A stretch of DNA of 64,000 nucleotides from Escherichia coli (GTDB lineage: Bacteria > Pseudomonadota > Gammaproteobacteria > Enterobacterales > Enterobacteriaceae). Each line of letters opens with the position of its first letter. Position 1 is the first letter of the stretch. Positions 34,879 to 37,634 of the stretch are shown here, piece by piece. The notes beneath the pieces were generated by a model that had not been told where the DNA came from, did no database searches, and worked only from the letters and a program-made list of their open reading frames with translations. Both the position numbers and the translations under genes were made by a program. The stretch lies in NCBI RefSeq assembly GCF_030013595.1, contig NZ_CP122768.1. One strand, given 5' to 3'.

Positions 34879-35190
34879 AGATAGTCGAATGGTGGGGAAA
34901 AGTCACTCGAATTACGTATGAGATGCCGAATGCCACACTTTGCGTCTTATTTCTCCGACGTAAAGTTGTTTACGCAGCAAACGCGGAGTATGTCATCTGG
35001 GTTAAGAATTGAAATTGAGAGATGCCTGAATAGCAAAAAAGCGCCTTTAGGGCGCTTTTTTACATTGGTGGGTCGTGCAGGATGACTCGCTTCGCTCGCC
35101 CTTCGGGCCGTCGCCGCGAGCGGCTCCGTTGTTTCGCTGCGCTCAACTCAAACCTGCTGCAGGTTCGAATCTTTGAGTATCGCAGATAGC

Positions 35191-35218
35191 AAAAAAGCGC
35201 CTTTAGGGCGCTTTTTTA
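35191..35218 (-). terminator. Rho-independent terminator after tRNA cluster (second copy at 35033-35061)
   Basis: AAAAAAGCGCC-ttta-GGGCGCTTTTTT symmetric hairpin. Confidence 0.6.
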
Positions 35219-35221
35219 CAT

Positions 35222-35297
35222 TGGTGGGTCGTGCAGGATTCGAACCTGCGACCAATTGATTAAAAGTCAACTGCTCTACCAACTGAGCTAACGACCC
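35222..35297 (-). tRNA. lysQ: tRNA-Lys (UUU)
   Basis: Reverse complement matches tRNA-Lys including CCA end; position in cluster. Confidence 0.9.
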
Positions 35298-35330
35298 CTT
35301 GCGGGATTATGCTGCTTTAATCATTCAGGA

Positions 35331-35406
35331 TGGTGGGTCGTGCAGGATTCGAACCTGCGACCAATTGATTAAAAGTCAACTGCTCTACCAACTGAGCTAA
35401 CGACCC
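35331..35406 (-). tRNA. lysZ: tRNA-Lys (UUU)
   Basis: Identical tRNA-Lys copy. Confidence 0.9.
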
Positions 35407-35552
35407 ATACGGGTGTTACCTGAAAGATTTCTACTCGGAACCAATCTTTAAAATTGGTGGGTCGTGCAGGATGACTCGCTTCGCTCGCCCTTCGGGCCGT
35501 TGCTGGCGCAACGTTATCCTTCACGCTTAACATCTGAGTTTGATGTTAAAAT

Positions 35553-35628
35553 TGGTGGGTCGTGCAGGATTCGAACCTGCGACCAATTGATTAAAAGTCA
35601 ACTGCTCTACCAACTGAGCTAACGACCC
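35553..35628 (-). tRNA. lysY: tRNA-Lys (UUU)
   Basis: Identical tRNA-Lys copy. Confidence 0.9.
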
Positions 35629-35631
35629 GAG

Positions 35632-35707
35632 TGGTGGGTGATGACGGGATCGAACCGCCGCCCCCCTCCTTGTAAGGGAGGTGCTCTCCCAGCTGAGCTA
35701 ATCACCC
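35632..35707 (-). tRNA. valZ: tRNA-Val (UAC)
   Basis: Reverse complement matches tRNA-Val(UAC), one base variant from the other copy. Confidence 0.9.
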
Positions 35708-35758
35708 GATACTGCGCTGGATACTACAAACTACTTCCACCGAACCCACCGTAATTAG

Positions 35759-35834
35759 TGGTGGGTCGTGCAGGATTCGAACCTGCGACCAATTGATTAA
35801 AAGTCAACTGCTCTACCAACTGAGCTAACGACCC
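35759..35834 (-). tRNA. lysW: tRNA-Lys (UUU)
   Basis: Identical tRNA-Lys copy. Confidence 0.9.
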
Positions 35835-35836
35835 GG

Positions 35837-35912
35837 TGGTGGGTGATGACGGGATCGAACCGCCGACCCCCTCCTTGTAAGGGAGGTGCTCTCCCAGCTG
35901 AGCTAATCACCC
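35837..35912 (-). tRNA. valT: tRNA-Val (UAC)
   Basis: Reverse complement matches tRNA-Val(UAC). Confidence 0.9.
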
Positions 35913-36047
35913 AATACTACGCTGGATACTACAACTAACTATGTTAGTGGTGGGTCGTGCAGGATGACTCGACTTCGTCTCGCCCTTCGGGCCGTTGCTG
36001 ACGCAACGTTATCCTTCACGTTTTACTACCGCTTCCACCTTAGCGAT

Positions 36048-36123
36048 TGGTGGGTCGTGCAGGATTCGAACCTGCGACCAATTGATTAAAAGTCAACTGC
36101 TCTACCAACTGAGCTAACGACCC
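36048..36123 (-). tRNA. lysT: tRNA-Lys (UUU)
   Basis: Identical tRNA-Lys copy, first gene of cluster. Confidence 0.9.
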
Positions 36124-36287
36124 ACTTTTTCGTTGCTTTCGGTTTGTTTGATATCCCGTGGCAACGGCGGCATATATTACTGATTTCAGACTTGAGCGCA
36201 ACAAAAATTTCGATGCAGATCACTCAACTGCTTATGATTCGCACGACACGACCAGAAATAATGCGACTTCTGGTCGTGTGTTATGCA

Positions 36288-37079
36288 TTACATCGCGTTC
36301 AGACGTTTTTGCGCCTGTTTAGCGCCATCAGTACCAGGGTATTTACTGATAACCTGCTGGTATACGGCTTTCGCTTTTGCGGTGTCACCTTTGTCCTGCA
36401 TGATGACGCCGACTTTAAACATCGCATCTGCAGCCTTTGGCGACTTCGGATAGTTTTTTACTACCGAAGCAAAATAGTACGCCGCATCATCTTTTTTACC
36501 CTTGTTGTAGTTTAACTGACCCAGCCAATAATTGGCGTTTGGCAGGTAAGTTGAATCAGGGTAATTTTTGATGAAATTCTGAAATGCCACCATTGCGTCA
36601 TCCTGGCGGGATTTATCCTGCACCAGCGCAATAGCTGCATTGTAATCCGTGTTTGCATCACCGCTTTTCACCGGCGCGCCAGCATTCGCAGTACCAGCAT
36701 CAGCTGTCGGCGTCATTGATGCCGCCGCACCGCTTTGATCGCCGCTGGTTGATTGCGCCGCTGCACCACCGCTGCTGAGGCTATCGATCTGCAACAGGAT
36801 CTGCTTTTGCCGCTCCACGACCTGATTCAGTTGATACTGATTTTCCTGAATCTGACCACGCAGGGAATCAATATCGGATTGATTATCAGAGAGTTGTTGC
36901 TGGAGTTGGGTTAAAAGCTGGCTGTGAGCATTTGAAATACGCTCAAGTTGAGTGACGCGGTCTTCGACCGAGCCTGAGCCGACACTACTGATTGGTGCCT
37001 GAGCAAAAGCGGCCCAGGGGGCCGCTATACCAACCAGTAACGACAGACTCAATAGTTGATGTCTGAAGTTACTGCTCAT
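36288..37079 (-). CDS. cpoB: CpoB (YbgF), TPR-containing cell-division coordinator
   Basis: 263 aa, signal peptide, coiled coil plus TPR. Confidence 0.9.
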   Translation of the reverse strand: MSSNFRHQLLSLSLLVGIAAPWAAFAQAPISSVGSGSVEDRVTQLERISNAHSQLLTQLQQQLSDNQSDIDSLRGQIQENQYQLNQVVERQKQILLQIDSLSSGGAAAQSTSGDQSGAAASMTPTADAGTANAGAPVKSGDANTDYNAAIALVQDKSRQDDAMVAFQNFIKNYPDSTYLPNANYWLGQLNYNKGKKDDAAYYFASVVKNYPKSPKAADAMFKVGVIMQDKGDTAKAKAVYQQVISKYPGTDGAKQAQKRLNAM

Positions 37080-37088
37080 GCAATTCTC

Positions 37089-37634
<546 letters not shown>

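Follow-up and report, generated by a model that had tools for sequence, protein, structure and literature searches.

The closest described relative of the sequences considered here is the RtT RNA of the tyrT-tyrV operon (RttR; Rfam family RF00391; rttR, b4425, in Escherichia coli K-12), a member of a family first described more than 30 years ago. It occurs as repeated copies, each located after a tRNA gene and in the same orientation. The core consists of an ACGTTGC..GCAACG hairpin, a GCCC-GAA-GGGC hairpin, a variable third hairpin, and the motif GAGTMATCC, and it is followed by a tail that is the 3' end of the unit's own tRNA, CCA included, to which the 5' strand of the unit is complementary. 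Overproduction of tyrT RtT reportedly has an effect on the stringent response, and this is the sole functional report. Transcribed spacers of tRNA precursors can also give rise to sRNA sponges, of which 3'ETS-leuZ and the metZWV ITS, freed by tRNA-processing nucleases, are examples. These are unrelated to RtT in sequence and structure and lack its copy of a tRNA 3' end, and, in contrast to them, we know of no base-pairing targets, established or predicted, for RtT. Integrase att sites provide a further comparison, because their cores in tRNA genes classically reach from the T loop as far as the CCA end.

Release of a discrete RNA has been reported only for the tyrT homologue (Bosl & Kersten 1991, cited in PMC4986893). 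The lysT operon of K-12, in which the sequences described below also occur, is expressed as a single transcript with its 3' end at the lysQ terminator, and the cleavages by RNase P run in the 3' to 5' direction (PMC4176162). The 3' extensions of the Lys pre-tRNAs, of up to 150 nt, are taken off by RNase II and PNPase, and RNase E can cut the long spacers of the operon (PMC4176162). Northern blots with spacer probes revealed few intermediates in the wild type; the same report does not mention RtT and describes no discrete spacer RNA (PMC4176162). Our literature search found no paper describing RtT in the lysT operon.

The stretch of DNA analyzed here (the window) comprises 64,000 nucleotides of the E. 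coli contig NZ_CP122768.1 (assembly GCF_030013595.1). It contains seven tRNA genes between positions 35222 and 36123, arranged in the same order as in K-12 (Table 1), and the five tRNA-Lys genes among them are identical. The 17-mer TGGTGGGTCGTGCAGGA has eight exact matches in the window, compared with 0.02 expected by chance; five form the 3' ends of genes that ARAGORN calls as tRNA-Lys(UUU), and the other three are orphans. A preliminary description of this DNA had placed the latter near 35065, 35462, and 35948. The fragments are real, with exact starts at 35066, 35455, and 35948, such that 35462 should read 35455. That description had also reported their fusion to a common GC-rich segment, and this is seen at every copy: all three orphans continue identically as the 24-mer ...GGATGACTCG (three matches, with none expected), after which CTCGCCCTTCGGGCCG comes next. 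The inversely oriented T-arm piece that it noted (CTGCAGGTTCGAATC, 35157-35171) is likewise present, and the terminator duplication takes the form of an exact 54-nt direct repeat (35030-35083 and 35186-35239), each copy of which holds the palindrome AAAAAAGCGCC...GGCGCTTTTTT. The fragments are non-random, tRNA-derived, and conserved.

Table 1. Features of the lysT operon region in the window
Feature	Position	Strand	Basis or remark
lysT	36048-36123	-	ARAGORN, Rfam tRNA
RtT-like unit 1, lysT-valT spacer	35948-36047	-	RF00391, 60.6 bits
Orphan tRNA-Lys 3' end, 18 nt	35948-35965	-	unit 1 tail
valT	35837-35912	-	ARAGORN, Rfam tRNA
lysW	35759-35834	-	ARAGORN, Rfam tRNA
lysW-valZ spacer, 51 nt	35708-35758	-	empty site; K-12 has a 98-nt RtT unit here
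valZ	35632-35707	-	ARAGORN, Rfam tRNA
lysY	35553-35628	-	ARAGORN, Rfam tRNA
RtT-like unit 2, lysY-lysZ spacer	35455-35552	-	RF00391, 57.8 bits; fold; alignment
Orphan tRNA-Lys 3' end, 18 nt	35455-35472	-	unit 2 tail
lysZ	35331-35406	-	ARAGORN, Rfam tRNA
lysZ-lysQ spacer, 33 nt	35298-35330	-	empty site; K-12 has a 99-nt RtT unit here
lysQ	35222-35297	-	ARAGORN, Rfam tRNA
Rho-independent terminator of the lysT operon, directly after lysQ (AAAAAAGCGCCCTAAAGGCGCTTTTTT)	35191-35217	-	palindrome; 54-nt duplicate
RtT unit 3, degenerate long form between the lysQ terminator and its identical copy	35066-35191	-	RF00391, 46.7 bits
Orphan tRNA-Lys 3' end, 18 nt (ATCCTGCACGACCCACCA), T-loop position 59 to CCA	35066-35083	-	unit 3 tail
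Second identical terminator copy, after unit 3	35035-35061	-	54-nt repeat

The orphan tRNA-Lys ends are very probably the 3' tails of three elements of the RtT family (RF00391) within the lysT operon. All three units score above the family's gathering score of 45, lie downstream of a tRNA gene on the same strand within the tRNA operon (as do relatives in other genomes), and end in the exact 18-nt 3' end of tRNA-Lys including CCA. They can be aligned with the four K-12 tyrT RtT copies, with invariant columns through GC.ACG.CCCGAAGGG.GA and GA.T.ATCCT, and the core that is common to both groups reads ACGTTGC..GCAACGGCCCGAAGGGCGAG..GAGTMATCC. The RF00391 alignment of the internal copies is partly artefactual, in that the 5' third of the model takes its match from the upstream tRNA-Lys T-arm, separated by a 44-nt insertion. 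That the score derives wholly from the adjacent true tRNA is nevertheless disfavored, because the core aligns with tyrT RtT. The resemblance to the tyrT elements extends to all of the features of layout set out above. The differences are that the tail and closing strand are specific for tRNA-Lys rather than tRNA-Tyr, that the internal copies are without the 5' domain of ∼45 nt (an inverted/direct T-arm hairpin and a CGAGCG hairpin), that there is no tpr-like ORF, and that the scores, at 47-61 bits, are well below the 133-137 bits of the tyrT copies. The observation is real, but RtT is a structured repeat known for decades from spacers in E. coli tRNA operons, and its presence is ordinary for the locus.

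Unit 1 is made up of a 27-nt leader (36021-36047) and a 73-nt core (35948-36020) that reads, in order, CGTGAAGGAT, the hairpin ACGTTGC-GTCA-GCAACG, GCCC-GAA-GGGC, GAC-GAA-GTC, GAGTC, and the tail; its minimum free energy (MFE) is -28.5 kcal/mol (z = -3.8). Unit 2 has a 27-nt leader containing a hairpin of its own (35526-35552) and a 71-nt core (35455-35525). These two are best described as a truncated short-form subfamily and are strictly not full-length RtT: the full-length 5' domain, which consists of the inverted T-arm hairpin and the small CGAGCG hairpin, is absent, and the closing strand abuts hairpin 1. In unit 3 the domain is present in degenerate form. There, the inverted T-arm copy GATTCGAACCTGC (35157-35171 on the plus strand) pairs with a direct T-arm-like sequence, GCAGGTTTGAG, after which come the GC-rich core and the tRNA-Lys tail. 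Unit 3 is barely above the gathering score and has a degenerate closing helix; PGAP labels it "RtT sRNA" in strain HCP5S3_I2, which is 100% identical.

Folding of the spacers, which the preliminary description had proposed, yields MFE structures with the closing helix and hairpins. The internal short form (71-73 nt) has four helices, the first formed by the 5' strand and the tRNA-like tail and the others being three hairpins, with an 8-nt ...ACCCACCA overhang. In the closing helix of the internal copies, CGTGAAGGAT pairs with ATCCTGCACG at nine of 10 positions, and this helix covaries between the Lys- and Arg-linked types (UA to GC and GC to AU, or the reverse). Across 34 distinct short forms, both Lys- and Arg-linked, 94.7% of cells are paired, compared with 28-49% when the partner strand is slid; six pairs in this set have double changes, and RNAalifold recovers the same four helices from it. 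Hairpin 3 has a stem of at least 3 bp in 79% of 52 distinct sequences, compared with 5% of shuffles. The four-helix fold of the short form is supported by covariation across 34 relatives. Such covariation fits constraint at the level of RNA and of single-stranded DNA alike and does not separate the two, and counts for the asymmetry between G·U and A·C in the helices are too sparse to distinguish them.

The RtT core is found after tRNA genes for Lys, Tyr, Arg, Pro, and Ser and after 5S rRNA genes in the Gammaproteobacteria, and it is conserved, with covariation, over several orders of this class. We surveyed the tails of 164 core-pattern matches in 123 loci, comprising 120 from a genome scan, the window-identical strain, and two from K-12. 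In 97 of the 99 matches with any tRNA tail match, the tail is identical to the final 16-19 nt of a tRNA on the same strand of its own locus, these 99 being of the types Lys (46), Tyr (33), Arg(ACG) (13), Pro (5), Ser (1), and Arg(CCG) (1), and the 5' strand of RtT covaries with tRNA type. The T-arm sequence GGTTCGAATCC is present in 80 of 83 linked tRNAs, and the 42 tRNA-Val genes all lack a linked core. Pantoea and Klebsiella have tandem arrays with a period of 156 nt. The forms linked to 5S rRNA and to tRNA-Arg score under the Rfam threshold and have no annotation in E. coli.

Alignment with the K-12 lysT-lysQ region, also proposed in the preliminary description, shows that the fragments are conserved there as part of five units in the same operon, compared with three in the window strain. 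Those after lysT, lysY, and the lysQ terminator are orthologous and nearly identical between the two strains; those after lysW and lysZ are lacking from the window strain, the differences being exact indels of 98 and 99 nt with the 18-nt repeat ATCCTGCACGACCCACCA at their borders. An interpretation of the fragments as scars of recombination is thus correct insofar as single units are gained or lost exactly at this repeat, but they are not mere scars, since they belong to a structured RNA family with covarying helices. By a rough count, ∼4046 of 5426 complete E. coli genomes contain a match to the long, K-12-type lysW-valZ spacer at 80% coverage or more, a figure that rests on the long-form query, the short-spacer BLAST search having joined pieces across the insertion. 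Of 5426 E. coli genomes, 3239 carry the terminal unit, and some strains have two annotated copies. Because this strain is missing two of the five K-12 copies, individual copies in the lysT operon are dispensable, and copy-number polymorphism argues against an essential role for the units.

The internal units lie within a polycistronic precursor of ∼1100 nt and are therefore processed along with it. Unit 3 is situated behind the operon terminator, with its own copy of the terminator, and is outside the main transcript. Each unit is a conserved GC-rich core to which the final 18 nt of tRNA-Lys are attached as an exact copy, with the junction at the T-loop position. The strand upstream of the core is complementary to this tail, so that the RNA folds into the closing helix and three hairpins and leaves ...ACCCACCA-3' single-stranded. 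We propose that RNase P would cut at the 5' end of the next tRNA and 3' exonucleases may then trim back to the closing helix, which would leave a tRNA-like CCA end; cleavage by RNase E or other enzymes in the AU-rich leader could release, or initiate decay of, a spacer RNA of ∼75-100 nt. Unit number varies, with three here and five in K-12, through units being gained or lost exactly between the 18-nt direct repeats. The tail is presumably kept identical to the neighboring tRNA through recombination or gene conversion, with the 5' strand tracking it by compensatory change.

Several other accounts of these elements have to be weighed against this one. They might be selfish, mobile, or amplifying DNA repeats, similar to MITE or REP sequences, that spread among stable RNA genes via the shared T-loop/3'-end sequence, with hairpins constrained at the DNA level or merely inherited and the RNA a by-product. 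This is a possibility to which we give some weight but do not favor. It draws on the multiple copies and their variable number within E. coli, the presence of the terminal unit in part of the genomes and its doubling in some strains, the tandem arrays of other genera, the occurrence of one core behind different tRNA genes and 5S rRNA genes, the near-restriction to tRNAs that carry the common T-arm sequence, with no tRNA-Val gene linked, and the position of terminal copies behind terminators, where transcription should be low. Set against it are the strict orientation relative to the upstream stable RNA gene, with units always downstream, and the window locus, where no transposase or integrase gene was seen. 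In addition, covariation of the 5' strand with the tail requires selection on pairing, and literature cited in PMC4986893 has the tyrT homologue giving a discrete RNA. We consider it unlikely that the units are cis-acting elements for the processing or stability of tRNA precursors, in which the closing helix and CCA tail would cap the 3' end and stall RNase II and PNPase, or would guide RNase E or RNase P, thereby ordering the maturation of the adjacent tRNA-Lys. Such a function would fit their position directly after tRNA-Lys genes inside the precursor, the stable helix followed by an 8-nt overhang, and the published removal of Lys pre-tRNA 3' extensions by RNase II/PNPase, together with RNase E sites in exactly these spacers (PMC4176162). 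However, in this strain lysW and lysZ are without a unit whereas lysT, lysY, and lysQ have one, and the identity of all five genes means that tRNA-Lys can mature in its absence; the terminal copy, moreover, is outside the main transcript. The preliminary description had also suggested conserved processing elements; a role specifically as a signal for RNase E or RNase P is unsupported.

The remaining two accounts have very little to recommend them. Site-specific integration at the 3' ends of tRNA-Lys genes would leave att sites as scars, and the repeated segment does span the T loop to CCA, as att direct repeats do, with indels flanked by exact direct repeats. But the 80-140 nt between the repeats are a conserved structured RNA family rather than foreign DNA and hold no integrase gene, gene remnant, or annotated CDS, the same architecture is found behind 5S rRNA genes, and the strand complementary to the tail would be left unexplained. 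Integrase-mediated recombination, which had also been suggested, is largely refuted on these grounds. It is similarly most improbable that the fragments represent pseudogenes of truncated tRNA-Lys or belong to alternative tRNA genes of full length, despite the 18-nt identity to tRNA-Lys and the T-arm-like GCAGGTT(T/C)GA that precedes the core in long forms. ARAGORN calls only the seven genes and none at the orphans, where the Rfam tRNA model has zero matches even at E ≤ 10, and full-length tRNA genes at these positions are thereby refuted; there is no D or anticodon arm upstream of the tail, and what lies there matches the core shared with tyrT RtT instead. RtT may have arisen long ago from the 3' half of a tRNA that had an insertion in its T loop, which is no rival for its present identity.

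As RtT-family elements, the units are of small significance for the window itself: the repeat family is known, the genome is that of the best-studied bacterium, and one of three copies is already annotated. Their interest lies at the level of the family, with its conserved, covarying core and a tail that always copies the 3' end of the neighboring stable RNA. A broader reading, which we regard as doubtful, is that RtT is not peculiar to tyrT or to tRNA genes but is a general module on the 3' ends of stable RNAs (tRNAs for Lys, Tyr, Arg, Pro, and Ser with the GGTTCGAATCC T-arm, and 5S rRNA), acting as a decoy or a mobile repeat. The layout, in which the 3' end of the host RNA is repeated at the end of each copy and its complement stands at the beginning, would be in keeping with this. 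If true, RtT could be a 3'-end mimic or decoy for readers of free stable RNA 3' ends, such as exonucleases, the CCA-adding enzyme, or RelA, or else a mobile repeat aimed at such ends. Natural strains with three and five units, differing by clean indels, could serve as isogenic-like material for studies of tRNA-Lys maturation and stress responses.

A number of minor observations were made at the locus. No sense-strand ORF with a start codon was found in any of the three units, and a tpr-type small ORF (protamine-like) can be dismissed, the ATG of GGATGAGAA being absent from all of them. An antisense Arg-rich ORF of 35 amino acids (35082-35189), in which ATG comes right after AGG with zero spacing, was discarded as no support for it was found. 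A promoter scan of the locus found nothing. A simple terminator scan missed the lysQ terminator and flagged antisense readings of RtT hairpin 1 instead, and the only repeat reported by Tandem Repeats Finder was the 205-nt duplication of Lys-Val genes.

Between nadA and cpoB, the minus strand at 34.8-36.3 kb carries seven tRNA genes, which ARAGORN calls as five identical tRNA-Lys(UUU) and two tRNA-Val(UAC). Chance would give 0.02 occurrences of the 17-mer TGGTGGGTCGTGCAGGA in the window, but there are eight: five form the 3' ends of the tRNA-Lys genes, and three, at 35066, 35455 and 35948, are orphans outside any full tRNA gene. The preliminary description had reported such fragments, fused to a common GC-rich segment, and exact matching bears it out: all three orphans run on into the same GGATGACTCG, then CTCGCCCTTCGGGCCG. 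Its position 35462 was a small slip for 35455; the oppositely oriented T-arm piece that it noted is real, as is the duplicated terminator, an exact repeat of 54 nt. Neither ARAGORN nor the Rfam tRNA model finds a tRNA at the orphans, which are therefore not parts of alternative full-length tRNA genes; tRNA pseudogenes were likewise rejected.

When all Rfam families were scanned against the 64-kb window, RF00391 (RtT RNA; gathering score 45 bits) matched every orphan together with its GC-rich segment on the transcribed strand (60.6, 57.8 and 46.7 bits), with no further match elsewhere in the window. Two of these units are internal, in the lysT-valT and lysY-lysZ spacers, and one, the terminal unit, lies between the lysQ terminator and its duplicate. 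The NCBI pipeline labels the terminal unit 'RtT sRNA' in another genome, which matches 34900-36300 at 100% identity. The repeats that lie behind tyrT/tyrV served to define the family. K-12 has four of them, scoring 133-137 bits with RF00391; the small ORF tpr overlaps one, the gene rttR. On alignment, the window units share with those of the K-12 lysT operon and tyrT a common core (ACGTTGC-loop-GCAACG, G/ACCCGAAGGGCGA, a variable hairpin and GAGTMATCC), whereas the tail is tRNA-Lys-specific in the lysT operon and tRNA-Tyr-specific in tyrT RtT. The window units are members of a known curated family, at an already annotated locus of the best-known bacterial genome, and the finding is therefore counted as already known. 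The Rfam family text mentions RtT-like repeats of further K-12 tRNA operons, which Rudd reportedly catalogued in the late 1990s (1999). What goes slightly beyond annotation is a four-helix model of the short form, the exact indel polymorphism and sub-threshold relatives linked to 5S and Arg.

Positions of the RtT-like units and of other features discussed
Feature	Coordinates	Strand
Internal unit, lysT-valT spacer	35948-36047	-
Its core	36020-35948	-
Its RF00391 hit	35948-36116	-
Internal unit, lysY-lysZ spacer	35455-35552	-
Its core	35525-35455	-
Its RF00391 hit	35455-35621	-
Terminal unit	35066-35191	-
Oppositely oriented T-arm piece	35157-35171	
Terminator repeat	35030-35083 and 35186-35239	
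Antisense ORF	35082-35189	+
valZ	35632-35707	-
CpoB/ybgF intercistronic RNA thermometer (RF02782)	37050-37188	-
Lambda cIII thermoregulator element (RF01804)	2440-2498	+
Tandem arrays, Pantoea and Klebsiella	L012:2138-2470, L067:1315-1650	
5S-linked form, other genomes	L030:60-230, L033:200-345, L080:300-445, L093, L072:7790-7912	

In each internal unit a leader of 27 nt, which is variable, is followed by a core of 71-73 nt. Folding of the spacers had been proposed, and both MFE folding (-28.5 kcal/mol, z = -3.8) and RNAalifold give a closing helix surrounding three hairpins. In this helix, CGTGAAGGAT of the core is paired with ATCCTGCACG of the tail at 9 of 10 positions, with a single A.G mismatch, and ACCCACCA-3' is left single-stranded. 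RNAalifold recovers the structure independently from 34 distinct short forms found in many enterobacteria, in operons with Lys and Arg(ACG) tRNAs. When the structure was imposed on these forms by hand, 94.7% of cells were paired, compared with 28-49% with slid partners, and six pairs have changed on both sides (UA<->GC and GC<->AU in the closing helix; GC/AU/CG/UA in hairpin 3). Among all relatives in the matches listed, the outer stem of hairpin 3 has at least 3 bp in 79% of 52 distinct sequences versus 5% of shuffles. On the internal copies, RF00391 aligns its 5' domain to the genuine upstream tRNA-Lys over a 44-nt insertion; this alignment is partly an artefact, and the internal copies are a short form without that domain. 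The hits reach 70 nt into the upstream tRNA-Lys gene, whose real T-arm stands in for the missing domain, and this overlap may be the reason that PGAP labels the terminal copy alone.

As a degenerate long form, the terminal unit runs from an inverted T-arm copy, GATTCGAACCTGC (the oppositely oriented piece), through its pairing partner, a direct T-arm-like GCAGGTTTGAG, to core and tail. It has a poor closing helix, and its RF00391 score is barely above threshold. No promoter-like site was found at the unit, which, lying behind a terminator, can only be produced by read-through. A 35-codon Arg-rich antisense ORF, MTRFARPSGRRRERLRCFAALNSNLLQVRIFEYRR, crosses it; this has neither a spaced Shine-Dalgarno sequence nor supporting evidence and is therefore probably chance in GC-rich palindromic sequence. 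In Pantoea and Klebsiella, 3-4 terminal units of Lys type, every one accompanied by its own copy of the terminator, are arrayed in tandem at a period of 156 nt, the spacing of the single duplication in the window (35066 versus 35222).

Alignment with the K-12 lysT operon, also proposed beforehand, reveals five RtT-like units there, one per tRNA-Lys gene and the last behind the lysQ terminator. The window strain keeps three, those following lysW and lysZ being absent as exact gaps of 98 and 99 nt, with borders inside an 18-nt direct repeat, ATCCTGCACGACCCACCA, and one base different in the flanks of each. By rough counts over 5426 complete E. coli genomes (at least 80% coverage), the K-12-type long lysW-valZ spacer is present in 4046 and the terminal unit in 3239; some strains have two annotated terminal copies. 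Unit number is thus polymorphic and changes by recombination or slippage between tRNA 3' ends and orphan copies; since two of the five K-12 units are missing here, no single unit is essential. Of the suggested scars of duplication or site-specific recombination, then, shifting copy number at tRNA 3' ends stands, and integrase scars were rejected. The window valZ differs by one base in its variable loop from window valT and K-12 valZ (GGGGGGCGG versus GGGGGTCGG).

A core-pattern scan of species-representative genomes gave at least 120 loci. The matches listed span Enterobacterales (including Erwinia, Pantoea, Hafnia, Yersinia, Budvicia and Brenneria), Orbaceae (Gilliamella), the Oceanospirillales-like Amphritea, Neptuniibacter and Marinobacterium, Thioalkalivibrio and others, with a minority of chance hits in GC-rich genomes. 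Among them, where the locus has a tRNA gene, 97 of 99 tail matches reproduce the final 16-19 nt of a tRNA there on the same strand, in nearly every case the upstream neighbour: Lys(UUU) in 46, Tyr in 33, Arg(ACG) in 13, Pro in 5, and Ser and Arg(CCG) in one each. Chance hits, 5S-linked copies and truncated loci are among the other 65 of the 164 core matches listed. The 5' closing strand varies with tRNA type, and long forms open with a near-exact inverted copy of the tRNA T-arm and part of the acceptor 3' strand (for Tyr, GGGGAAGGATGAGAACCTT versus the reverse complement GGGGAAGGATTCGAACCTT). Over loci L002-L123 (the window-identical L001 excluded), in counts that lack phylogenetic independence, the matches listed place T-arm motif GGTTCGAATCC in 80 of 83 RtT-linked tRNAs versus 91 of 171 unlinked ones, and none of 42 tRNA-Val(UAC), which has GGTTCGATCCC, is RtT-linked, even within the same operons. 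Short forms with a tRNA-Arg(ACG) tail, ATCCTCCCGGATGCACCA, and matching 5' strand, GGGAGGAT, lie in serV-argV-type clusters (L016, L029, L048, L071 and other loci); at 29-41 bits with RF00391 they would escape standard annotation. For long forms linked to Pro or Ser, the scores are 55-95 bits.

The same GC-rich core also follows 5S rRNA genes in other genomes, ending in the 5S 3' end, AACTGCCAGGCAT, and starting with its complement, GGCAGTTCaCTACTC. This form scores a sub-threshold 34 bits with RF00391 and is present, unannotated, in 574 of the 5426 E. coli genomes. The module always duplicates the 3' end of the stable RNA next to it and pairs with that 3' end.

The internal units are situated inside a tRNA precursor. 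The K-12 operon yields a single transcript of ~1100 nt, ending at the terminator after lysQ, which RNase P cleaves in the 3'->5' direction at the 5' end of each tRNA, so that Lys pre-tRNAs keep up to 150 nt of 3' extension; in the processing model of the Figure 7 legend, these extensions are next handled by RNase II and PNPase; RNase E is able to cut in exactly these long spacers (PMC4176162). The 3' exonucleases would be expected to pause at the stable closing helix and 8-nt tail, yielding an RNA with a tRNA-like CCA end, which cuts in the AU-rich leader could free. Our literature search found no experiment showing such CCA-ended species for the lysT operon. For the tyrT homologue, release as a discrete RNA (Bosl and Kersten 1991, as cited in PMC4986893) and an effect on the stringent response upon overproduction are reported. 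A serious alternative, favoured by the polymorphic copy number, the tandem arrays and the copies that lie behind terminators, is that the units are a selfish or amplifying DNA repeat. That they are a cis-acting processing element is possible, but weakened by the existence of identical tRNA-Lys genes without a unit.

A pseudouridine-mapping preprint, in which strand information was not kept, describes an sRNA 'antisense to tRNA-Tyr' beside rttR/tpr (PMC11623569). Long-form RtT includes an inverted tRNA-Tyr T-arm copy, so RtT reads from the K-12 tyrT locus might, speculatively, have passed for antisense tRNA-Tyr. Elsewhere in the window, the CpoB/ybgF thermometer (142 bits) is in its expected place upstream of cpoB, and the cIII element (88.5 bits), towards one end of the window, suggests a lambdoid prophage there.
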